From Candidatus Woesearchaeota archaeon (GTDB lineage Archaea > Nanobdellota > Nanobdellia > Pacearchaeales > GW2011-AR1), in the NCBI GenBank assembly GCA_964588735.1, contig CAZPQF010000002.1, positions 18,174 through 30,973 on the forward strand: a DNA stretch of 12,800 bases, given 5' to 3'. Below the pieces are notes generated by a model that saw only the letters and a list, made by a program, of their open reading frames with translations, ran no database searches and was not told where the DNA came from. Every line of letters starts with the position of its first letter. The first letter of the stretch is position 1. The translations under genes were made by a program, and so were the position numbers. Of this stretch, positions 868 through 12,165 are shown piece after piece.

Positions 868-1532
868 AACTCTTTTTATCTGGTGGGGGGAGTGAGGCAT
901 TTAAATTAGATGAAGAATTTATCAAAGAAATAGATAAATCAAAACCCATGTTATATATCCCTATTGCTATGGACCCAAAAAAACATTCTTGCTCAGAATG
1001 TTTTAAGTGGATTAAAGATTACTTCAGACCTTTCAGTTTCGGAAATATAATTATGAAAACAGATTTAAACAAAATTAATAGAGATGAAATAAATAAATTC
1101 GGATCTGTATATATAGGGGGAGGAAATACCCCAATATTACTTAAAGAATTAAGAGAAAGTGGTTTTATTGAAATTTTAAAAGATTTAATGAATAAAGATA
1201 TCCCAATTGCAGGAGGAAGTGCTGGAGCAATAATTTTTACGAAAACAATTATTCCCTCCCTAAGTGCTGATAAAAATAAAGTAAAACTAAAAAATCTAAA
1301 TGGACTAAATAAAATTAATGATTATGAGATGTGGTGTCATTATGAATCATCAATGGATAAAGAAATTTTAGAATATATGAAAAAATATAATTTTAATAAA
1401 ATAATTGCATTGCCAGATAAAGTCGGGATTTATGTCAATAACAACAACATGATAATCTTGGAAAATAAAACTGCTTATGTTTTTAATGAGAAAGAGAAAA
1501 GAGAAATTAAAGATGGAGAGATATTAAAGTGA
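864..1532 (+). CDS. peptidase S51 (dipeptidase E / class I glutamine-amidotransferase-like) family protein
   Basis: YIGGGNT and AGGSAGA motifs are typical of the S51 Ser nucleophile elbow. GGAGGG lies at 851-856. The 5' end has an ATGA overlap with arsR and the 3' end a GTGA overlap with the next gene. Confidence 0.7.
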   Translation: MKLFLSGGGSEAFKLDEEFIKEIDKSKPMLYIPIAMDPKKHSCSECFKWIKDYFRPFSFGNIIMKTDLNKINRDEINKFGSVYIGGGNTPILLKELRESGFIEILKDLMNKDIPIAGGSAGAIIFTKTIIPSLSADKNKVKLKNLNGLNKINDYEMWCHYESSMDKEILEYMKKYNFNKIIALPDKVGIYVNNNNMIILENKTAYVFNEKEKREIKDGEILK

Positions 1533-2710
1533 TATTTAATAAAAAACAAATTTATCTTGATAATGGAGCTACAACAAAAGTAGATCCTACAGTTGTTAAA
1601 GCTATGATGCCTTATTTTAATGAAAAGTATGGGAATCCCTCATCGCAACATACAATAGGACAACAGGCAAAGATTGTATTAGAAGAGTCTCGTGCAATAA
1701 TTGCAAAATCAATAAATGCAAAACCAAAAGAAATTATATTTACTGCAGGAGGAACTCAAAGCAATAATCTTGCATTAAAAGGAGTTTTTTTTGCTGTAAA
1801 ACAAAATTCAAAAAGATTTAAAGGAAAAACAAAACCACACATTATTACAACAAAAATAGAACATGATTGTGTGTTAAATACATCAAGATGGCTAGAAAAA
1901 CAAGGAGCAGAAATAACTTATCTAAATGTGGATAATAATGGATTTATTGATATTAAACAATTAAAAAAATCAATAACAAAAAATACAATTCTTGTTTCAA
2001 TAATCCATGGAAATAATGAAATAGGCACGATTCAAAATCTTGAAGAGATTGGGCAAATCTGCAAAGAAAAAAATATATTATTTCATTCAGATGCTTGTCA
2101 ATCATATACAAAAGTTCCAATAAATGTTAGAAAAATGAATTTGAATTTGTTAACATTAAACAGCCATAAAATTCATGGTCCAAAAGGAGTTGGTGCTTTA
2201 TATGTTAAAGAGGGTATTAAAATAACTCCTTTATCTCATGGAGGGGGGCATGAAAAAAATATAAGAAGTGGAACAGAAAATATTCCTGGTATTGTTGGAT
2301 TTGCTAAAGCAGTATCTGTTGCAAAACCAAGATATGTTGCATATATGGCAAAATTAAGAGATAAGTTAATTAATGAGATATTAAAAATACCAAATACAAA
2401 ATTAAATGGTGCAACAGACAAAAAAAGATTATGTAATAATATTAATATATCTTTTATGAATATAGAGGGAGAGGCATTAGGGGGTTATCTCGACGCAAAA
2501 GGAATTTGTACTTCAACAGGAAGCGCTTGTTCATCACACTCACTTGAACCTAGCCATGTTTTACTTGCAGTAGGTTTATCTCCTTTAGAGGCAAATACTT
2601 CAATAAGATTAACATTAAGTAAATTTAATACAGAAAAAGAAATAGATTATACAATTAAACAAATTAAAAATGTTGTAAATAAATTAAGGAGGATAAGCCC
2701 GTTTAGTTAA
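1529..2710 (+). CDS. iscS: cysteine desulfurase (NifS/IscS class, PLP-dependent)
   Basis: SHKIHGPKG carries the PLP lysine. GGGHEKNIRSGTENIPGIVG is present, as is the active-site loop STGSACSS. GTG start at 1529 with GGAGAG 8 nt upstream. Confidence 0.93.
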   Translation: MIFNKKQIYLDNGATTKVDPTVVKAMMPYFNEKYGNPSSQHTIGQQAKIVLEESRAIIAKSINAKPKEIIFTAGGTQSNNLALKGVFFAVKQNSKRFKGKTKPHIITTKIEHDCVLNTSRWLEKQGAEITYLNVDNNGFIDIKQLKKSITKNTILVSIIHGNNEIGTIQNLEEIGQICKEKNILFHSDACQSYTKVPINVRKMNLNLLTLNSHKIHGPKGVGALYVKEGIKITPLSHGGGHEKNIRSGTENIPGIVGFAKAVSVAKPRYVAYMAKLRDKLINEILKIPNTKLNGATDKKRLCNNINISFMNIEGEALGGYLDAKGICTSTGSACSSHSLEPSHVLLAVGLSPLEANTSIRLTLSKFNTEKEIDYTIKQIKNVVNKLRRISPFS

Positions 2711-2712
2711 AA

Positions 2713-3168
2713 ATGAAGAGAAAGAAAAATAAATTACAAAAATTAGAAGACGGAGAGCATTGTTTTTTTATTTGGGATGTTAGAGAAGATTTAGGTATTG
2801 TAACAATACTATATCATGATGGTTCTTCTTCCCTTGTAGAAATGGTTGAGAAAAAAGAAAATTTAGTAACTGTTCCTTATGATTCTCTTGATATATATTG
2901 GCCAGTAAAAATGAAGAAACAGCAACGGTTTTTTGTGGAGGTTAATGATGGAATAATTAGTTCTATTAAACCGCATTTAGGTAGATATATTGAAAGAAGA
3001 GCATTATATTCGCAAAGTTTAGCTAGAATATTAGAAGAAGAATATGGTTCTGTTCAAGGGCTGTTTCAATATCATGAGATTGCTTGCCCAAGAAAAGGTC
3101 TTCAAAAACAATTTTATGATATATTGCTAAGAGCTCAAGAAAGAAACAGAGAAGGAGCTAAGGATTGA
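2713..3168 (+). CDS. hypothetical protein (151 aa), operon partner of the cysteine desulfurase
   Basis: The ORF starts 2 nt after the iscS stop. I recognise no motif. Composition looks like genuine coding sequence. Confidence 0.55.
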   Translation: MKRKKNKLQKLEDGEHCFFIWDVREDLGIVTILYHDGSSSLVEMVEKKENLVTVPYDSLDIYWPVKMKKQQRFFVEVNDGIISSIKPHLGRYIERRALYSQSLARILEEEYGSVQGLFQYHEIACPRKGLQKQFYDILLRAQERNREGAKD

Positions 3169-3180
3169 ATTAATAATCAA

Positions 3181-3298
3181 AAAATCCCTGTGTGTTACCA
3201 ACACTTAAAAGTGTTGGTTTGTTTTGGGATTTTAGGATGCTCAAGATTGCATTCATCCACGTCTTGAAAGATGTGGTTTTCTGCATCAGCAATCTTGA
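3181..3298 (+). ncRNA. GC-enriched two-hairpin structured element (candidate small RNA, or terminator plus 5'-UTR structure)
   Basis: Hairpin 1 pairs AAAATCCC (3181-3188) with GGGATTTT (3226-3233) and encloses CCAACAC(3198-3204)/GTGTTGG(3211-3217). Hairpin 2 pairs TCAAGATTGC (3241-3250) with GCAATCTTGA (3289-3298) and encloses CCACGTC(3257-3263)/GATGTGG(3270-3276). That inner stem has a G-T pair that only works as a + strand RNA wobble. Confidence 0.3.
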
Positions 3299-3333
3299 CA
3301 TAACAAATTCAGTTTCATAATCAGGAGGATAAA

Positions 3334-3576
3334 ATAACAAACAAAATAACACGTAAAACAAAAATTGGAGATTTAGTAAGAAAATATCCAGAAGCTGCAG
3401 AGATTTTGATGAGAAAAGGGTTGGGCTGTGTTGGGTGTCCAATGGCAATGATGGAGACAATTGATATTGGATTAAAAGCTCATGGCTTTAAAGAAAAAGA
3501 GATTGATAAAGTGATAGATGCCTTGAATAAAGAAATAAGTAAAGGAAAAAAGAAGACATCAACTAATAATAAATAA
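3334..3576 (+). CDS. DUF1858 / hybrid-cluster-protein-associated redox-disulfide (CxxC) small protein, with no canonical start codon
   Basis: The frame is open from 3304 to TAA at 3574-3576. It translates to ...ITRKTKIGDLVRKYPEAAEILMRKGLGCVGCPMAMMETIDIGLKAHGFKEKEIDKVIDALNKEI..., the DUF1858 pattern. There is no in-frame ATG/GTG/TTG before 3403. GGAGG at 3324-3328 lies 5 nt upstream of ATA at 3334. The gene is absent from the ORF track, which shows a spurious minus-strand ORF here. Confidence 0.65.
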   Translation: MTNKITRKTKIGDLVRKYPEAAEILMRKGLGCVGCPMAMMETIDIGLKAHGFKEKEIDKVIDALNKEISKGKKKTSTNNK

Positions 3577-3687
3577 ATTATGCTAATAATGCTAAAATCT
3601 GATAAATTAGGGCTCAGCTAAGCAACGATTAAACCTAATTTAAAAATATGGGAATTAATTATAATAATAAATAAAAAACAATCTAAA

Positions 3688-4086
3688 ATGGAAAATAAAA
3701 CACAATATTCAGAAAAAGTCATGCAAGAGTTCTTCAATCCGAAAAATATTGGAGAAATAAAAAACGCAGACGGAGTTGGTAAAGTGGGAAACCCAATCTG
3801 TGGAGATGTAATGTATGTTTATATTAAAGTTATAAAAAATAAAAAAGGGCAAAATATAATCAAAAATATTAAATTTAAAACAATGGGTTGTGCTGCTGCA
3901 ATAGCAACATCTTCAATGATAACTCAATTAGCAAAAGGAAAAACAATTGAAAGAGCAAAAAAAATAACAAAAAAAGATGTTGCAAATTCATTAAAAGGTT
4001 TGCCGCCAATTAAAATGCATTGTTCAAACTTAGCTGTTGATGCTTTAAAAAAAGCAATTGAAGATGCAGAAAATAAGGAAAAATAA
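3688..4086 (+). CDS. iscU: IscU/NifU-N-type Fe-S cluster scaffold protein
   Basis: The three scaffold cysteines are in canonical contexts: GNPICGD, MGCAAAIATSS and HCSNLAVDALKKAI. Confidence 0.92.
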   Translation: MENKTQYSEKVMQEFFNPKNIGEIKNADGVGKVGNPICGDVMYVYIKVIKNKKGQNIIKNIKFKTMGCAAAIATSSMITQLAKGKTIERAKKITKKDVANSLKGLPPIKMHCSNLAVDALKKAIEDAENKEK

Positions 4087-4089
4087 AAA

Positions 4090-4983
4090 ATGAATATTGA
4101 GAAACAAGTTAAACAAACAATATCAAAATACAAACTTCTAAATAAAAATACAGAAAACAAGAAGTTTTCTGTCCCTCAAACTTCTAAAAAGATAAAAGAA
4201 GTTAGAGATGATAAAATTGCAGTTGCTCTTTCAGGAGGAAAAGATTCTGCTTCTGTTCTGTTTATATTAAAAAAATTAGGTTATAATGTTGAAGGGTTTC
4301 ATATGAATTTAGAAATTGGCAAATATAGTAAAGATTGTGAAAGAGCTGTTAAAAAATTATGTGAAAAATTAAATGTTAAATTGCATATTTTTGATATCAA
4401 AAAAGAATTTGGAACTTCAATGTGTTATATTCGTTCAGCTGTAAAAGAAAAGAAAAATTATAAATTAAGCAACTGCGCAATATGTGGAGTTATTAAAAAA
4501 TGGATTCTGAATAAAAAAACTCGGGAGATGGGTTTTAATAAAATTGTTACAGGACATAATTTAGATGATGAAGCAGAGACAGTTATAATGAATATTTTGC
4601 GAGGAGATTTAACATTAGGAATAAATTCAGGACCGATTACAGGAAGTATTAAAGACAAGAAATTTATTCCAAGAATTAAACCTTTATTTTTTGTTGAAGA
4701 AAAAAAATGTAAAAAATACAGCAAAAAAAATAATCTTCCAGTTAGATATGAAATATGCCCTTGCAGAAGTGAAACATATAGAGTTAAAATCATTAATTTT
4801 TTAAATAGGAAATCTGAAAAAATAAAATTAAATATTGTTAAAAATTATTTAAAATTAATTCCAAAATTGAAGAAAGGATTAAATGAGAAGCAAAAGAAAA
4901 AATTATATTATTGTGAAGTTTGTGGAGAACCTGCAAGAAATCCTATTTGTCAAAAATGTAATTTATTAAAAGATATACTATAA
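4090..4983 (+). CDS. PP-loop ATPase, TtuA/NcsA/TtcA-family tRNA 2-thiolation sulfurtransferase
   Basis: SGGKDS PP-loop and GHNLDDEAET motif. Candidate [4Fe-4S] ligands are CAIC and CPC. A C-terminal CxxC...CxxC zinc ribbon is present (CEVCGEP...CQKC). The gene starts 4 nt after the iscU stop. Confidence 0.8.
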   Translation: MNIEKQVKQTISKYKLLNKNTENKKFSVPQTSKKIKEVRDDKIAVALSGGKDSASVLFILKKLGYNVEGFHMNLEIGKYSKDCERAVKKLCEKLNVKLHIFDIKKEFGTSMCYIRSAVKEKKNYKLSNCAICGVIKKWILNKKTREMGFNKIVTGHNLDDEAETVIMNILRGDLTLGINSGPITGSIKDKKFIPRIKPLFFVEEKKCKKYSKKNNLPVRYEICPCRSETYRVKIINFLNRKSEKIKLNIVKNYLKLIPKLKKGLNEKQKKKLYYCEVCGEPARNPICQKCNLLKDIL

Positions 4984-5494: not shown

Positions 5495-5638
5495 TATAAG
5501 TATGCCAAGGTTTCCTTAATCTCAGAAATCAAAGATTTCTGAGCACTATTAAGAACTTGAAAAAACGAAAAGTTCTTGAAGCATTCAACCTCCTTAGAGA
5601 TTGAATTAAGGTTGATAAAAATAAACGGGGTAAAAATA

Positions 5639-6118
5639 ATGGAATGTCCATTTTGCGGTAAATTTGAAACAAAAGTAACTGATAAGAGAACTAGTGGGAA
5701 TGAAATTCGAAGACGAAGAGAGTGTTTAAATGAGAAATGTAAAAAGAGATTTACAACTTATGAAAGAATTGAAAAAAAGGATATTATTGTTGAAAAAAAA
5801 GATGGCAGACGAGAAAAATTTGATGTTGAAAAATTAAAATCTGGAATTATAAAAGCTTGTGAAAAACGTCCTATAAATTATGAAAAAATAGATAAAATTA
5901 TTAATGAAATTGAAAATAAATTAAGAAAAAAAGGAAGAGAAATAAAATCAAACGAAATAGGTGAGTTGATTATAAAAAAACTCAAAAAACTTGATAAAGT
6001 TGCTTATATTAGATTTTCTTCAGTATATCAAGATTTTAAAGATATTGAAGATTTTAAATCTGCTATGAAAAAAATAGAAAAAAGGAAGAGAGAATCTAAA
6101 ACAAAAATAAAAAAATGA
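5639..6118 (+). CDS. nrdR: NrdR transcriptional repressor (zinc ribbon + ATP-cone)
   Basis: MECPFCG...RRRRECLNEKCKKRFTTYERIE is the NrdR zinc ribbon, followed by an ATP-cone (VEKKDGRREKFDVEKLKSGI...VAYIRFSSVYQDF). The true start is taken as ATG 5639. The TTG 5576 extension in the ORF track precedes the universally N-terminal M-x-C-P-x-C. Confidence 0.9.
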   Translation: MECPFCGKFETKVTDKRTSGNEIRRRRECLNEKCKKRFTTYERIEKKDIIVEKKDGRREKFDVEKLKSGIIKACEKRPINYEKIDKIINEIENKLRKKGREIKSNEIGELIIKKLKKLDKVAYIRFSSVYQDFKDIEDFKSAMKKIEKRKRESKTKIKK

Positions 6119-6142: not shown

Positions 6143-9100
6143 ATGCCTTTAAAAATAATAAAAAGAGATGGTAGGATTGTTGATTTTGAAAAAGAGAAAA
6201 TTATTAAAGCTATTTGGAAAGCTGCAAAAGCAGTTGGCGGTAAAAATAAAGAAAAAGCAAAAGAACTTGGAAATTTAGTTGTTAAAGAAGCTAATAAAAA
6301 ATTTGGTAAAAGAACACCACAGGTAGAAGAAATTCAAGATATTGTTGAAAAAATTTTAATTGAAGAAGGGCATGCAAAAACAGCAAAAGCATATATATTA
6401 TATAGAAAAAGCCATCAGGATTTAAGAGATATCAAGGCAATTTTTGATACAATAGAAGCTGTTGAAGATTATGTTGGTGTTAATGATTGGGAAATAAAAG
6501 AAAATTCAAATATGGATTTTTCATTGCAAGGATTAAATAATTATATTACAGATAAAATAATAAAAAATTATTGGCTGGGAAGAATTTATCCAGAAAAAAT
6601 CAGAAAAGTTCATTTAAATGCAGATATTCATATTCATGATTTAGGGGTATTAGGACCTTATTGTGTTGGATGGGATTTAAAAGATTTATTAACAGTTGGT
6701 TTTAAAGGAGTTAGAGGTAAAGTTGAATGTTCTCCACCAAAACATTTGAGGGCTGCTATTGGACAGATTTTTAATTTTTTCTTTACATTACAGGGAGAGG
6801 CTGCAGGAGCCCAGGCTTTTTCAAATTTTGATACTTTGCTCGCACCATTTATTAGATATGATAATCTTTCATATAAAGAAGTTAAACAATCTATGCAAGA
6901 ATTTTGTTTTAATCTTGCTGTTCCAACAAGAGTAGGATTTCAATGTATGTCAGAAGACACAGAAATTTTAACTTCTGAAGGATGGGCAGGATATAAAGAA
7001 TTAAAAAAAGGAGATAAAATAAAAACATTTAATATTAAAAAAAAGGTAATTGAGGATAAACCAATCAAAAAACTTTTTTCAAAGAAATATTCTGGAAAGA
7101 TGTATAATCTAAAAAATAGAATACAAGATCAATTAATTTCTCCGAATCATAGGATTGTAAGAAAGAAATTTCATGGTGATAAATATGTTCTTGAAAAAAT
7201 AGAAGATGTTGCAAAGATGAAATCCCCTTTTATTATACCGATTGCAGGAAAGAATAAAAATAAAAATGCAAAGATTAGTGATAATAAGATTAAACTTTTG
7301 GCATGGATTATCGGAGAAGGGAATATTGAAAGGCCGGGAAAACATGGATGTTGTTATAGAATTAGTATTTATCAATCTGCTAAAAAGAATAATGAATATT
7401 ATAAGGAAATAAAAAAACTATTAGAACATTTTAAATTAAAATATTCTGAATATACACAGAAAGGTCTTGGTCAAGAAGTTCAAAGAATAAGATTAAATGC
7501 TGAATCTTCAAGAAAGATACATTCCTGGTTTGGGACAAAACAAACTATAGGGTTTATTCCTAATTCACTTTTAAATATGAATGAAAGACAATCAAAACTT
7601 TTTCTTGATGCATATATGAAAGCAGAAGGATTTGAAAACTGCAAAATAGCTACCAGTGATAAGAGTATTTTAGATGGATTACAAGCAATAGCATTAAACG
7701 CTGGTTATGGTTCTACAGTATTAATTAGAAAACCGACTATTGGCAAGAAACCTACTTTTATTTTAAGAATTATAAAACATAAAGAGACCTATATACAAAA
7801 AATAAAAGAAGTTGATTATAATGGAATTATTTGGTGTCCTAATACTGATAATGAAACAGTAATTGCCAGAAGAAATGGCAAGGTGTTTATTACCGGAAAT
7901 ACACCTTTTACAAATATTACTCTTGATTTAAAAATTCCGAAACATATGAAAAATGAACCAGTTATTTATGGCGGAAAACCTCAAAAAGAAACATATGGAA
8001 AATTTCAAAAAGAAGTTGATATGATAAACAGAGCTTTTGCAGAAGTTATGATAGAAGGAGATGCAAATGGAAGAGTTTTTACATTTCCTATACCTACTTA
8101 TAATATAACAAAAAATTTTGATTGGGATAATCCAGAACATAATTTAATATGGGAAATGACATCAAAATATGGTATTCCATATTTTTCAAATTTTATAAAT
8201 TCAGATATGGATCCAGAAGATGCAAGGAGTATGTGTCCTTTAGCAGGTGATGAGAAAGTCTTGATTAAATCTTCAAGAGGAAGAAATTTAGAATATGCTG
8301 AGATAAGAAATGTTTTTAAAAGTAAAAGGAAAAATCAATATGAAATCTATAGTAATGGGAAATTTGTAAAAGGGAGATTTAATTCTTTTAAAAATCAAAA
8401 AATGATTAAGGTTATCTTAGAAAATGGGCATGAAATAAAAATGTCTAAAGAACATTTAAATTTTGTTTTGAAAAATAAAGAAGGAAAACAAAAAGAGATT
8501 AAAGGGAAAGATCTACGAGAAGGAATGTATCTTCCTTATTCTCTCAATGTTTATGAAGGGGAAGGAGGAAATAAAGAATTGGGTTATTTTGTAGGAGCTT
8601 ATGCAGGAGATGGTTCTTTTGACAAAGAAGGAAGTGTGATTTTTTCTTTAGAAGGAAATTATAAAAAACAAATTATAAGCAAATTACAGAAAATAGCAAA
8701 AAAATATTTTGGAGCCCATAGTGTTATTAAAAAACATTCTAAATCAAAATTAGTGACATTAAAAATTCATTCTAAATCAGCTGTGGGTTTATGCAAAGAT
8801 TTTGTAGAAGGTATAAAAAGAGAGAAACATTATAAAGCAAGATTATTTTCTATGAGTCAAGAATTTAGGAGAGGGGTATTAGAAGGACATTATGATACAG
8901 ATGGGGGCAATCGAGGAAGAATTTATACATCTTCAAAAAAAATGATTGAGTCTTTAAACATGCTTGCTGCAACCTTAGGAACCACTACTTCAATATATAA
9001 GGACCATAGAGAAGGAAGATTAGGAAAAGAAGCTAATTATGCTGTTTTAATTTATAAGCTGAATAGGGAAAATTATGGAAATTTTTGGTTTAAAAAGAAA

Positions 9101-10171
9101 GATAAATTATGGGTAAAAATAAAAAGCATTAAAAAAATTAATAATTCTACAGCATATTGTTTTGGAGTAGATAAAGAGGCTCCAGAATTCACGGTTGGGA
9201 CTACAGGGATTTTAACACACAATTGCAGATTAAGGTTAGATCAAAGTGAACTTAGAAAAAGAGGAGGTGGATTATTTGGAAGCAATCCATTAACAGGAAG
9301 TATTGGTGTTGTAACAATAAATATGCCTAGAATAGGATATTTATCTAAAAATGAACAAGAATTTTTTGAAAAATTAGAAGAATTAATGGAGCTTGCAAAA
9401 GAAAGTTTAGAGATTAAAAGAAAAATTTTAGAAAAATTTACAGAAACTGGTTTATATCCTTATTCAAGATATTATTTAAGATATGTTAAAAAAAGATTTG
9501 GAAATTACTGGGCAAATCACTTTTCTACAATAGGATTGTTAGGAATGAATGAAGCAATTATTAATCTTTTTCCTGATGAAAATATTTCCACAGAAAAAGG
9601 AAGAGTATTTGCATTAAAAGTTTTAGAGTTTATGAGACATAAACTTGAAGATTATCAAAAAGAAACAGGACAAATTTATAATTTAGAGGCAACACCTGGT
9701 GAAGGAACAACTTATAGATTTGCAAGAGCAGATAAAAAAAGATTTCCAAATATAAAAGTAACTAATGAGAAGGTTGTTGAAAAGGGAGCAAAACCATATT
9801 ATACAAATTCTACACATCTTCCAGTTAATTATACAGATGATTTGTTTGAAGCATTAGAATTACAAGACCCATTACAAACAGAATATACTGGAGGAACAGT
9901 ATTTCATAGTTTTGTTGGTGAGAAAATAGATAAAAATGCCGTGAAAATATTGGTTAAAAAAATAGCTGAAAATTTTAAAATGCCTTATTTTACTATAACT
10001 CCTACTTTTTCAATCTGTCCAATTCATGGTTATATTCCAGGAGAACATGAATATTGTCCTAAATGTGAATTAATTCAAGAATCACGTGTTAATGTAAAAA
10101 AACAAAATTTAAAAAATAATTCTAATCAAAATAAAAAAATGGAGGTGTTTCAACATGAAAACAAAATGTGA
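6143..10171 (+). CDS. nrdD: anaerobic (class III) ribonucleoside-triphosphate reductase large chain, with N-terminal ATP-cone and two inteins, lacking the glycyl-radical motif in frame
   Basis: ATP-cone at the N-terminus (LKIIKRDGRIVDFEKEKI...AYILYRK). NrdD motifs TPFTNITLD, CRLRLD...RGGGLFG...TGSIGVVTINMPRIGY and the Zn site CPIHGY...CPKC are present. The exteins sum to 693 aa. The frame ends in a low-complexity tail (LIQESRVNVKKQNLKNNSNQNKKMEVFQHENKM) instead of RVxGY. Confidence 0.93.
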   Translation: MPLKIIKRDGRIVDFEKEKIIKAIWKAAKAVGGKNKEKAKELGNLVVKEANKKFGKRTPQVEEIQDIVEKILIEEGHAKTAKAYILYRKSHQDLRDIKAIFDTIEAVEDYVGVNDWEIKENSNMDFSLQGLNNYITDKIIKNYWLGRIYPEKIRKVHLNADIHIHDLGVLGPYCVGWDLKDLLTVGFKGVRGKVECSPPKHLRAAIGQIFNFFFTLQGEAAGAQAFSNFDTLLAPFIRYDNLSYKEVKQSMQEFCFNLAVPTRVGFQCMSEDTEILTSEGWAGYKELKKGDKIKTFNIKKKVIEDKPIKKLFSKKYSGKMYNLKNRIQDQLISPNHRIVRKKFHGDKYVLEKIEDVAKMKSPFIIPIAGKNKNKNAKISDNKIKLLAWIIGEGNIERPGKHGCCYRISIYQSAKKNNEYYKEIKKLLEHFKLKYSEYTQKGLGQEVQRIRLNAESSRKIHSWFGTKQTIGFIPNSLLNMNERQSKLFLDAYMKAEGFENCKIATSDKSILDGLQAIALNAGYGSTVLIRKPTIGKKPTFILRIIKHKETYIQKIKEVDYNGIIWCPNTDNETVIARRNGKVFITGNTPFTNITLDLKIPKHMKNEPVIYGGKPQKETYGKFQKEVDMINRAFAEVMIEGDANGRVFTFPIPTYNITKNFDWDNPEHNLIWEMTSKYGIPYFSNFINSDMDPEDARSMCPLAGDEKVLIKSSRGRNLEYAEIRNVFKSKRKNQYEIYSNGKFVKGRFNSFKNQKMIKVILENGHEIKMSKEHLNFVLKNKEGKQKEIKGKDLREGMYLPYSLNVYEGEGGNKELGYFVGAYAGDGSFDKEGSVIFSLEGNYKKQIISKLQKIAKKYFGAHSVIKKHSKSKLVTLKIHSKSAVGLCKDFVEGIKREKHYKARLFSMSQEFRRGVLEGHYDTDGGNRGRIYTSSKKMIESLNMLAATLGTTTSIYKDHREGRLGKEANYAVLIYKLNRENYGNFWFKKKDKLWVKIKSIKKINNSTAYCFGVDKEAPEFTVGTTGILTHNCRLRLDQSELRKRGGGLFGSNPLTGSIGVVTINMPRIGYLSKNEQEFFEKLEELMELAKESLEIKRKILEKFTETGLYPYSRYYLRYVKKRFGNYWANHFSTIGLLGMNEAIINLFPDENISTEKGRVFALKVLEFMRHKLEDYQKETGQIYNLEATPGEGTTYRFARADKKRFPNIKVTNEKVVEKGAKPYYTNSTHLPVNYTDDLFEALELQDPLQTEYTGGTVFHSFVGEKIDKNAVKILVKKIAENFKMPYFTITPTFSICPIHGYIPGEHEYCPKCELIQESRVNVKKQNLKNNSNQNKKMEVFQHENKM
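6944..7900 (+). mobile_element. intein 1 in NrdD (319 aa, LAGLIDADG homing-endonuclease type)
   Basis: Begins CMSEDTEILTSEGW (block A). Block B is ISPNHRIV. LAGLIDADG-like motifs are LLAWIIGEGN and LFLDAYMKAEG. It ends NGKVFITGN, followed by +1 Thr of the conserved TPFTNITLD. Removal joins ...PTRVGFQ to TPFTN.... Confidence 0.85.
8234..9223 (+). mobile_element. intein 2 in NrdD (330 aa, LAGLIDADG homing-endonuclease type)
   Basis: Begins CPLAGDEKVLI. Block B is MSKEHLNFV. LAGLIDADG motifs are LGYFVGAYAGDGS and VLEGHYDTDGG. It ends GILTHN, followed by +1 Cys of CRLRLD. Removal joins ...DARSM to CRLRLDQSELRKRGGG. The boundary is uncertain by one residue. Confidence 0.88.
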
Positions 10172-10298
10172 AGTTTATTCAAGAGTAGTGGGTTATTTAA
10201 GACCAGTAGATAAATGGAATGAAGGAAAAGCCGAGGAATTTAAAGATAGGAAAACTTTTTCAGTTTCAGATAGAGAAAATAAAAAAATAAAAGAATAA
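10155..10298 (+). CDS. nrdD: 47-aa ORF encoding the NrdD glycyl-radical motif as a separate reading frame
   Basis: MKTKCEVYSRVVGYLRPVDKWNEGKAEEFKDRKTFSVSDRENKKIKE carries the class III RNR radical signature RVxGY...WNxGKxxEFxxR. It is in the +1 frame relative to 6143-10171 and overlaps it by 17 nt. GGAGGTG at 10141-10147 lies 7 nt upstream of the ATG. The ORF is too short to appear in the ORF track. Confidence 0.75.
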   Translation: MKTKCEVYSRVVGYLRPVDKWNEGKAEEFKDRKTFSVSDRENKKIKE

Positions 10299-10313: not shown

Positions 10314-11024
10314 ATGAAAATAGCAGGACTTCAAAAATTAACATTAATTGATTATCCAGGAAAAATAGCCTGCACTATTTTTTTATTTGGTTGTAATTTT
10401 AGGTGTGGTTTTTGCCATAATCCTGAATTGGTTATTGCAGATGAAATTTCAGAAGAATATTCCCAAGAACAAATTATTGATTTTCTTAAACAAAGAAAAA
10501 AATATTTAGACGCTGTTTGTATTACAGGGGGAGAACCATTAATTAATCAAGACATTATAGAATTTTTAAAAAAAATAAAACAAATTGGTTATTTAATTAA
10601 AATAGACACAAATGGAACAAATCCTGAATTATTGAAAAAAATAATTGATGAAAAATTAGTGGATTATATTGCTATGGATATTAAATCTGATAAAGAACAT
10701 TATCATATTTTAGCAAATGTTGATATAGATATAGGAAAAATAGAAGAATCAATTAAACTTATCTCTGATTTTAGCAATTATGAATTTAGAACTACTGTTA
10801 TACCAACACACCATAATAAAGAGATAATGAAAAATATTGGAGAATGGATGAATAATATTTGTGAAAAAATTCCTGAAAATTATTATTTACAGAATTTTAT
10901 TTCCCGAGAAAATAAGATGATTGACGAAAGTTTTGAAAAAATAAGATCTTTTTCTGACCAAGAATTAGAAGAATTAAAAAATAGTGTTAATGGTTATTTT
11001 AAAAATATTGAAATTAGAAATTAA
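10314..11024 (+). CDS. nrdG: anaerobic ribonucleotide reductase activating enzyme (radical SAM)
   Basis: The CNFRCGFCHNP CxxxCxxC radical-SAM cluster motif lies near the N-terminus, and GGEPL is present. Size and position directly after nrdD fit nrdG. Confidence 0.9.
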   Translation: MKIAGLQKLTLIDYPGKIACTIFLFGCNFRCGFCHNPELVIADEISEEYSQEQIIDFLKQRKKYLDAVCITGGEPLINQDIIEFLKKIKQIGYLIKIDTNGTNPELLKKIIDEKLVDYIAMDIKSDKEHYHILANVDIDIGKIEESIKLISDFSNYEFRTTVIPTHHNKEIMKNIGEWMNNICEKIPENYYLQNFISRENKMIDESFEKIRSFSDQELEELKNSVNGYFKNIEIRN

Positions 11025-11669: not shown

Positions 11670-11987
11670 ATGGCAGAGGATTTGGAAATAAGTGGAAAAG
11701 AATTTGATAATAAAATCAGTGAAGGAGTTGTAGTAATTGATTTTTATGCTGAATGGTGTATGCCTTGTCTTATGATGGCTCCTATTATAGAAGAACTTGC
11801 TGAAAAATTTAAAGATAAAATTAGTTTTGCTAAATTAAATATAGATGATAATTCTGAAATTGCACAAGAATATAGTGTTATGTCAATTCCAACTTTAATT
11901 ATATTTAAGGATGGAAAAGAAGTTGAAAGAATTGTTGGTAGTTTGCCTCAAGATTTATTAGAAGAAAAAATTGGAAAACATGCTTAA
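11670..11987 (+). CDS. trxA: thioredoxin with a WCMPC active site
   Basis: VVIDFYAEWCMPC...SIPTLIIFKDGKEV shows the thioredoxin fold signature, including the cis-Pro context. GGAGG at 11657-11661 lies 8 nt upstream. Confidence 0.9.
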   Translation: MAEDLEISGKEFDNKISEGVVVIDFYAEWCMPCLMMAPIIEELAEKFKDKISFAKLNIDDNSEIAQEYSVMSIPTLIIFKDGKEVERIVGSLPQDLLEEKIGKHA

Positions 11988-12057: not shown

Positions 12058-12165
12058 GGCTCCGTAGCTCAGCCTGGTTAGAGCACTAGGCTTTTACTGA
12101 GGTCAGAGAAAAAACTGACTTTAGGAGATACCTAGGTGTCGAGGGTTCAAATCCCTCCGGGGCCA
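12058..12165 (+). tRNA. tRNA-Lys(UUU) with a 33-nt intron at the canonical 37/38 position
   Basis: Acceptor GGCTCCG/CGGGGCC (one G-U pair) with discriminator A. D arm GCTC-AGCCTGGTTA-GAGC. Anticodon stem CTAGG/CCTAG with mature loop CUUUUAA (anticodon 12093-12095). T arm GAGGG-TTCAAAT-CCCTC. CCA is not encoded. The mature length is 75 nt. Confidence 0.93.
12097..12129 (+). other. bulge-helix-bulge tRNA intron
   Basis: Perfect hBHBh' motif. The 5-bp anticodon stem is followed by a 3-nt bulge AUA (12128-12130). A 4-bp helix follows (12091-12094 with 12124-12127), then a 3-nt bulge UAC (12095-12097). A 9-bp intron helix closes it (12098-12106 with 12115-12123). Both predicted cleavage sites fall after the second bulge nucleotide. 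Confidence 0.8.

Follow-up and report, generated by a model that had tools for sequence, protein, structure and literature searches.

Glycyl-radical enzymes are described as bearing the radical on their own C-terminal domain. The nrdD gene studied here, which encodes a class III (anaerobic) ribonucleotide reductase (RNR), raises the question of what has become of the enzyme when this domain is found in an open reading frame (ORF) of its own. The gene lies in a stretch of 12,800 nucleotides (nt) from a Candidatus Woesearchaeota archaeon (assembly GCA_964588735.1, contig CAZPQF010000002.1, positions 18,174 to 30,973 of the forward strand), which was analysed at its full length and is called the window below. 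The large ORF of this gene stops ahead of the radical motif, and the motif is carried by a 47-codon ORF that overlaps its end in another frame and is followed by nrdG, the gene for the radical S-adenosylmethionine (SAM) activase. This arrangement could be a decayed gene, a gene whose two pieces are joined at the RNA or protein level, or an enzyme made of two chains. Comparison with related loci favours the last of these: with a probability that we put at about 0.8, the locus encodes an obligate two-chain class III RNR, in which a small radical peptide acts in trans.

We examined the large ORF and found that it matches the Pfam family NRDD (PF13597, 2.3e-168) and the ATP-cone (5.5e-22), as well as the models NF006126 and TIGR02487. 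NF006126 gives 457 bits on the C-terminal 315 amino acids (aa) of the large chain alone, and the matches of the large chain in the PDB are NrdD structures (8P23, 9D3X, 4COI and 1H78). The first-pass annotation, made from the letters alone, had described a frame (6143-10171) that reads ...CPIHGYIPGEHEYCPKCE and then runs into a low-complexity tail ending with the TGA at 10169-10171, and a 47-aa ORF in the +1 frame, which starts with the ATG at 10155, behind a strong GGAGGTG at 10141-10147, and encodes MKTKCEVYSRVVGYLRPVDKWNEGKAEEFKDRKTF... (MKTKCEVYSRVVGYLRPVDKWNEGK...). This description proved correct, coordinates included, and so did its central claim that the radical segment is detached into an ORF driven by its own Shine-Dalgarno (SD) sequence. 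The NRDD profile, which has 562 positions, is matched by the large ORF as far as 529 and by the small ORF over 531-562 (E 1.5e-10), so that it is split between 529 and 531. The RVxGY motif is absent from the large ORF, and in a six-frame scan of the window its sole copy was the one in the small ORF. The small ORF was matched only by PF13597 and by the NrdD models of NCBIfam, and not by the Gly_radical family of Pfam, which is of the pyruvate formate-lyase (PFL) type. Pairwise alignments place the break at the same point, since the large chain aligns to T. maritima NrdD as far as residue 609 and to P. copri NrdD as far as residue 703, while the small chain aligns to residues 610-643 of the former and starts at position 710 of the latter. 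Of the 245 columns without variation in 16 contiguous homologues, the peptide and the large chain, with its two inteins removed, together retain 239. The break thus falls neatly after the Zn ribbon and before the radical loop, in an enzyme that is otherwise whole.

The split is not peculiar to this genome. A sample of 80 species-level genome loci was fetched with the last extein of the large chain, a query that does not favour split genes, and nrdD was split at the same point in 32 of them and contiguous in 48. The split loci include all 24 closest relatives, which are Woesearchaeota, Pacearchaeota and Nanoarchaeota metagenome-assembled genomes (MAGs) from many independent studies, and the further archaeal loci L030, L054, L055 and L062. 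On the bacterial side they include two loci of Patescibacteria, or Candidate Phyla Radiation (CPR), bacteria (L033 and L080), a MAG labelled Gammaproteobacteria (L046) and Elusimicrobium simillimum (L070). A second search added two further cases with the same split, E. posterum and the cultured type strain, E. minutum Pei191; the genomes of all three Elusimicrobium species are closed. In E. minutum Pei191 (L081:2752-5964, CP001055.1), a large chain of 690 aa is followed by a gap of 176 nt, the 62-aa Emin_1189, annotated as 'hypothetical protein', a gap of 157 nt and nrdG; in the cultured Elusimicrobium species, the two gaps measure about 180 nt and 160 nt. The large ORF stops ahead of the radical motif in all 34 split loci, and a radical-SAM CxxxCxxC motif was found 3' of the small ORF in 33 of them, that is, in every locus that extends far enough. 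Comparison across these loci, which take in nearly the whole Woese/Pacearchaeota clade, excludes an assembly error or a strain-specific lesion as a general explanation. The break lies in the linker that leads from the Zn ribbon to the conserved (T)KCEVYSRVVGY segment. It is old and inherited by one clade of DPANN archaea as a whole, with the same break point in some CPR bacteria and in Elusimicrobium.

Searches at the protein level gave a similar picture. When the peptide was used as the query, the best 120 of 614 matches were all 36-81 aa long, and among representatives of clusters at 50% identity, 148 of the best 150 were 41-116 aa long. Over three protein searches, 300 of 309 proteins were short and bore the motif; 291 of these 300 begin with Met and are therefore not fragments from contig ends. 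The top match of the search among representatives, P0163 (1605 aa), is a repeat protein and was rejected as a homologue. Among the small homologues, P0002 (66 aa, JGI) carries the radical segment EVYSRVVGYLSPVSHWNEGKKEEW twice in tandem, and many relatives of the Elusimicrobium peptide end in a Cys-rich tail (GGCSCGCDCASDK).

The junctions of the split genes bear signs of separate translation. A GGAGG-type SD core lies 3-10 nt 5' of the ATG in 27 of the 34 split loci, and the N-terminus of the peptide, M-K-(K-R)-T-K-C-E, is conserved. In all six sister genomes, which were assembled independently, the two ORFs overlap in an ATGA stop/start, a classic sign of translational coupling. The geometry of the junction, by contrast with its SD and ATG, varies. 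Relative to the large ORF, the small ORF is in the +1 frame in 12 loci, in the +2 frame in 20 and in frame 0 behind a stop in 2; the peptide frames differ even between E. simillimum and E. minutum, and the distance from CxxC to RVxGY ranges from 67 to 380 nt among the split loci. In a viral contig (L161:4968-7648, IMGVR_UViG_3300033146_002098), the order itself is permuted: a 52-aa peptide comes first, then nrdG, then nrdD-large, which ends ...CPNCV and a stop right after the Zn ribbon and is itself broken into ORFs of 416 aa and 142 aa with a 66-nt gap. No recoding or splicing could join the pieces in this contig.

These observations bear on the possibility that NrdD is one polypeptide after all, joined through a linker of about 30 residues by a +1 frameshift, by transcriptional slippage or by correcting an assembly indel, each at the A7 run at 10133-10139. 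In the window, the run does lie in a zone of 56 nt (10113-10168) in which both frames are open, and the deletion of one A from it gives the fused ORF ...NQNKKWRCFNMKTKCEVYS.... However, the shift that would be needed differs from locus to locus (+1, +2 or 0), no single frameshift can fuse the ORFs in 8 of the 34 split loci, the zone open in both frames is just 1-13 nt long in several others, and only 3 of the 34 have a homopolymer of at least 6 in this zone. With no conserved direction of shift, a frameshift or bypass as a general mechanism is ruled out by this survey of frames and spacers, and what is conserved instead is the SD and the ATG. Together with the ATGA overlap of the six sister genomes and the permuted order in L161, this makes a single chain very improbable for the locus.

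It would also be possible that nrdD is a pseudogene here and that the small ORF is a leftover of its decay, and we looked for selection on the peptide. Over a 32-codon core in 27 split loci, the mean proportion of synonymous differences (pS) was 0.83, which is saturated, against a mean proportion of nonsynonymous differences (pN) of 0.21. Between the window and the six sister genomes, the pN of the peptide core was 0.05-0.08 at a pS of 0.75-0.98. The peptide is thus under strong purifying selection, which, with the 239 retained columns, is not what decay would leave. The low-complexity tail of the large ORF is indeed longer in the window than in the sister genomes, by about 41 A-rich nt, canonical splicing of the second intein would leave the finger loop with one Cys (see below), and DPANN genomes are reduced. 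Against this, the 4-kb ORF with its two inteins is intact, nrdG, nrdR and the thioredoxin gene are intact alongside, and the same architecture is found in many lineages, cultured bacteria among them. We therefore give the pseudogene reading little credence.

We also looked at viruses, in a sample of 80 loci on IMG/VR contigs (L086-L165), each with up to 5 kb of flanking sequence. In 48 of these loci there was a stand-alone small ORF with an NrdD-type motif, and no NrdD core or NrdG was detected near the 48 ORFs within the fetched flanks, except in L161; an ordinary full-length phage NrdD was present in 25 of the 80. The neighbours of the viral orphans are terminase, portal, tail and adaptor genes, and the orphans themselves come in two forms, either a bare radical peptide of 43-66 aa or a Zn ribbon with the radical loop, of 76-156 aa (examples in Table 1). 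The archaeal virus ANMV-1 (L168:3186-3620, KP703175.1) provides a case in which such an ORF already has a name: its 144-aa 'anaerobic ribonucleoside triphosphate reductase' (AJP62049.1), beside a prohead protease, is just a Zn ribbon and a radical loop, and it was taken as evidence of a virus-encoded RNR in a paper of 2015. In a collection of cultured phages there were 4 matches, 2 of which are ordinary full-length NrdD. The viral orphans are candidate 'radical cartridges' and support an action in trans, with the qualification that NrdD may sit elsewhere in the viral genome and that some contigs may be cellular.

The phage orphans, which suggest service to enzymes encoded elsewhere, could also be taken to mean that the peptide is an optional spare part and that the large chain gets its radical from another source. 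This we consider hardly probable, as the large chain is without a glycine-radical motif of its own and ends before the motif at every split locus surveyed, and no second nrdD was seen within the window.

As to how the gene came to be split, the first-pass annotation had proposed a recent duplication or insertion of 103 nt that supplied the SD and the ATG. It started from the 9-mer AAATGTGAA, encoding K-C-E, which within the window indeed occurs only at positions 10061 and 10164. A recent origin of this kind does not agree with a split that is old and lineage-wide, and the similarity itself is no greater than expected by chance. When 10055-10154 was aligned locally with the small ORF, the best score was 18, which was reached by 148 of 2000 first-order Markov shuffles, and the 'ghost' similarity claimed past the 9-mer is no better, its score without the 9-mer being reached by 1302 of 2000 shuffles. 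A repeat search also recovered pieces of the supposed duplication, but the shuffles place these at the level of chance, and the alignment of the sister genomes shows that K-C-E-L-I is orthologous tail sequence. Deleting 103 nt would restore the frame, as had been stated; the CPKCEVYS junction that would result, however, occurs in none of the 48 contiguous relatives. The underlying premise was that the Zn site of known NrdD proteins runs directly into the radical motif, but contiguous homologues carry a linker of 3 or 8 residues and a further Cys between CxxC and EVYSR, reading CxxC-x3-C-E-V-Y-S-R or CxxC-x8-C-E-V-Y-S-R (for example CPKCMVEGTKTKCEVYSRVVGY in L078). Hence, the two K-C-E are two separate conserved protein motifs. 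In the alignment, the small ORF has its K-C-E within the conserved (T)KCEVYS segment, and the copy in the large ORF corresponds to the last residues of the Zn ribbon followed by an acidic residue (CPKC[E/D]). Most split relatives have CPKCD instead of K-C-E at the end of the Zn ribbon, and the sister genomes have K-C-E at both places too, with synonymous differences; the identity of the two copies in the window at the DNA level is due to AT-rich codon preference.

The least probable of the readings is that the spacer is removed from the RNA, as an archaeal bulge-helix-bulge (BHB) or other intron, or that the two proteins are ligated after translation: the archaeal host does have a substrate of the splicing endonuclease nearby (the tRNA intron, 12058-12165) and the gene already holds two inteins, but a fold of 10030-10210 revealed no RNA structure beyond that of shuffles (z +1.27), an Rfam scan of the whole window (E up to 1) matched tRNA only and nothing at the junction, the spacer varies in length and sequence among relatives that conserve the stop, the SD and the ATG, the K-C-E at both ends is missing in most of them, the bacterial members (Elusimicrobium and CPR) are without BHB splicing, and the peptides of the DPANN type have just 4-8 residues ahead of the conserved core, too few for half of a split intein.

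In summary, as general explanations, the pseudogene, the RNA excision, the +1 recoding and the indel in the A-run that the first-pass annotation had listed as alternatives are made improbable by the sister genomes, although for the window alone a 1-nt error or slippage at the A7 run could still apply. What that annotation had set out conditionally, a two-chain enzyme that is expressed and activated by the adjacent NrdG, is strongly favoured by the comparison, through the conservation, the selection, the SD and ATG, the overlaps, the variable frame and spacer and the permuted viral order.

Such a two-chain enzyme would work as follows. The large chain, from which the two inteins are spliced out, would contribute the ATP-cone, the Zn ribbon and the catalytic barrel. 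The glycine of the stable radical would reside on the separate 47-residue peptide, whose translation would begin, by translational coupling, at an SD and ATG of its own within the end of the large ORF. NrdG, with S-adenosylmethionine, would take the pro-S hydrogen from Gly13 in the peptide, whose radical loop would then fill the slot in the barrel that is used by the C-terminal loop in one-piece NrdD, and the radical would pass from the peptide to the finger-loop cysteine, followed by catalysis as in an ordinary NrdD. An action in trans is plausible because PFL activase is reported to act on short Gly-containing peptides (Frey et al. 1994, as cited in PMC8683613), because YfiD/GrcA docks in trans into cleaved PFL (PMC13450708; PMC8683613), and because, in one-piece NrdD, the glycyl-radical domain has high mobility and is invisible in complexes with dATP (PMC11226230). 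A likely, though unproven, advantage would be to have the oxygen-labile part as a cheap and exchangeable unit; neutral fixation of the split is equally possible. We further suggest, tentatively and with some doubt, that the peptide may be a diffusible and consumable radical cofactor, which is charged by NrdG in solution, plugged into the large chain and swapped after oxygen damage, and that viruses may carry the peptide alone, with or without the Zn ribbon, to boost or repair the RNR of the host.

Several points weigh against the two-chain enzyme or against its being active in this genome. First, the reading rests wholly on comparative sequence analysis. Second, the A7 run in the window is a place where a 1-nt slippage or sequencing error would fuse the ORFs, although nothing requires that. 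Third, the peptide of the DPANN type is nearly without an N-terminal extension by which it could stay bound to the large chain. In Elusimicrobia, a heptad-like spacing of hydrophobic residues was seen both in the tail of the large chain (KEQAIEDIERRIKAIEEQL) and in the N-terminal extension of the peptide (MTAQEKxVVExxISELKKEMSEVKG, about 22 residues), and these helices possibly form a non-covalent coiled-coil tether in place of the lost linker.

The second intein raises a further difficulty. In the two alleles that carry it, those of the window and of L007, the sequence reads RSM/CPLA[GA]DE...GILTHN/CRLRL, whereas all intein-less relatives read RSMC/CRLRL (slashes mark the insertion point). 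Canonical splicing would thus leave one Cys in place of the invariant CC pair of the finger loop, and the activity of the large chain of the window is therefore not guaranteed. This intein has a Cys at the block-F position (AYCF) and a Thr in LTHN, which recalls class 3 inteins, and it may start non-canonically at Pro699, which would keep the CC. The large ORF owes its length of 1342 codons to this intein and to the first one.

The last point against a simple form of this reading concerns the history of the split. A rough neighbour-joining tree showed one large split clade and further split lineages (L055/L062, L046/L033 and Elusimicrobium), but a contiguous gene, that of the Woesearchaeota MAG CAZEZA010000042.1 (L025; CPTCNSKCEVYSRVVGY), was nested among the split genes beside L005. 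Hence, the history is not a single clean event. L025 may have been re-fused, or its 3' end may have been replaced by recombination, and the tree, which is too crude for counting, suggests several events or transfers.

The features of the window and examples of the viral orphans are collected in Table 1. At about 27% G+C, the window is AT-rich, and it encodes an RpoH/Rpb5-type RNA polymerase subunit and an intron-bearing tRNA. The nrd operon has the order NrdR-like regulator, nrdD large chain, 47-codon ORF and nrdG, and after one further gene comes thioredoxin, a possible reductant. The Zn ribbon of the NrdR-like ORF, as started from a TTG, begins only at residue 22, and translation probably starts from the ATG at 5639. 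A repressor of the NrdR type is typically bacterial; here it stands immediately 5' of nrdD in an archaeal window. The tRNA, probably Lys-UUU, was found with Rfam and missed by ARAGORN. Upstream of the operon, at 1529-4983, a NifS/IscS-like cysteine desulfurase (393 aa), an IscU/NifU-like scaffold (132 aa) and a probable PP-loop ATPase (297 aa) were identified by eye.

Table 1. Positions of the nrd genes, their parts and neighbouring features in the window, with examples of viral orphan ORFs (slashes mark intein junctions)
Feature	Position	Strand	Description
NrdR-like regulator	5576..6118	+	Pfam Zn_ribbon_NrdR 3.5e-15, ATP-cone 1.8e-21; immediately 5' of nrdD
nrdD large chain	6143..10171	+	1342 codons; 693 aa without the two inteins; ATP-cone, catalytic barrel, Zn ribbon, 34-aa non-NrdD tail
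Intein 1 (319 aa; aa 268-586, CMSEDT...ITGN/T)	6944..7900	+	exactly between Q and T of RVGFQ/TPFTNI; homologues read RVGFQTPFTNI ungapped
Intein 2 (aa 698-1027, (C)PLAGDE...GILTHN/C)	8234..9223	+	Pfam Intein_splicing 2.2e-10, LAGLIDADG_3 1.3e-10; in the finger-loop SMCC motif
Zn ribbon CPIH-x10-CPKC	10016..10066 (aa 1292-1308)	+	final NrdD-homologous element of the large chain; aligned with CxxH/C...CxxC of homologues; kept in all relatives
Large-chain tail (ELIQESRVNV...ENKM) and stop	10067..10171	+	first residues E-L-I shared with sister genomes (ELISNEEFKKIKEVIK, then stop)
SD-like GGAGGTG	10141..10147	+	within the large-chain tail, 7 nt before the ATG of the small ORF; strongest SD of the window
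nrdD small chain, glycyl-radical peptide, 47 aa	10155..10298	+	Gly13 codon 10191-10193; RVVGY...WNEGK; +1 frame, 17-nt overlap with the large ORF
nrdG, radical-SAM activase	10314..11024	+	TIGR02495 NrdG2 201.8 bits (cut-off 131.15); Pfam Radical_SAM and Fer4_12; starts 15 nt past the small ORF
Thioredoxin gene	11670..11987	+	Pfam Thioredoxin 1e-29; downstream of the operon
tRNA with 34-nt intron after the anticodon loop (CUUUUA)	12058..12165	+	Rfam, 58.7 bits
Viral orphan ORFs (examples)	L115:4974-5105; L105:4989-5171; L089:1467-1697; L131:4911-5171; also L082:173-421		

The two-chain NrdD resembles several known systems without matching any of them. With the one-piece NrdD and NrdG of phage T4, E. 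coli, T. maritima (4COI) and P. copri (8P23), it shares the family, the ATP-cone, the Zn ribbon, the RVxGY...WNxGK motif and the adjacent NrdG, but the motif here is on a separate 47-aa chain, with the Zn ribbon on one side of the break (T. maritima residue 609) and the radical loop on the other (residue 610). The first-pass annotation had compared the peptide to GrcA/YfiD, and as a functional analogy this comparison is fair: GrcA/YfiD of E. coli and Y06I of phage T4 are likewise small stand-alone radical-loop proteins, which presumably receive their radical from the cognate radical-SAM activase and then slot into a large partner. The orphan copies borne by phages add to the analogy, being found in both systems, and the viral orphans described here are the nearest counterpart of Y06I (PMC13450708). 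However, GrcA rescues a damaged partner that owns a radical domain, whereas the partner here never has one, so the peptide would be obligate. As there is also no sequence homology, the peptide falls outside the GrcA/YfiD family.

Other RNR genes are known in pieces. In NrdA-a/NrdA-b of Aeromonas phage Aeh1, which arose with a mobE insertion, and in the split class II NrdJa/NrdJb, an RNR gene likewise lies in two adjacent ORFs whose products reassemble (PMC2988022; PMC3653736; bioRxiv 10.1101/2022.04.23.489257). These differ in the RNR class and in the break point, which in nrdD is a functionally special one, and in being confined to single phages, whereas the split nrdD is inherited across a large cellular clade and its detached piece, of about 40-60 aa, is the radical carrier itself. 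Nor was a homing-endonuclease gene found between the pieces: the ORFs of the window overlap by 17 nt, and in the relatives they either overlap or are separated by up to about 180 nt, with spacers in which no ORF was seen. In phages, nrdD may also be annotated in several coding pieces (Dwivedi et al. 2013), as in T4, with a group I intron, and in Aeromonas phage phiAS4, but these are intron interruptions or unexplained strain-specific breaks elsewhere in the gene, and none is described as a conserved detachment of the radical segment. Finally, NrdA/NrdB of class I RNR also keeps the stable radical on a separate small subunit, from which it is delivered to the catalytic subunit; that subunit, in contrast, is an unrelated ferritin-like metalloprotein of about 40 kDa, and delivery is by long-range radical transfer instead of loop insertion. 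A search of open-access papers and bioRxiv turned up no account of an NrdD with a detached radical peptide, though specialists may have noticed it before.

By sequence, then, the split enzyme is a class III RNR that would lack a trait of its family, the radical glycine on the catalytic chain. According to reviews, radical spare-part proteins are known only for PFL and formate lyases (PMC8683613, 2021; PMC13450708, June 2026), and both reviews leave open whether other glycyl-radical enzymes have them. A two-chain NrdD across much of DPANN and in cultured Elusimicrobium makes this question testable with three small genes, and a peptide of about 45 residues would be a minimal system for substrate recognition by the activase and for docking of the radical loop. 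There are also consequences for annotation: the peptides are labelled 'hypothetical' or 'anaerobic RNR', the large chains may be scored as truncated or as pseudogenes, and an archaeal virus said to encode an RNR carries the radical domain only. The viral orphans hint at auxiliary metabolic genes of a new kind. If the peptide is indeed a diffusible cofactor, it would be the first spare part of a glycyl-radical enzyme other than PFL, and no smaller protein radical carrier would be known.

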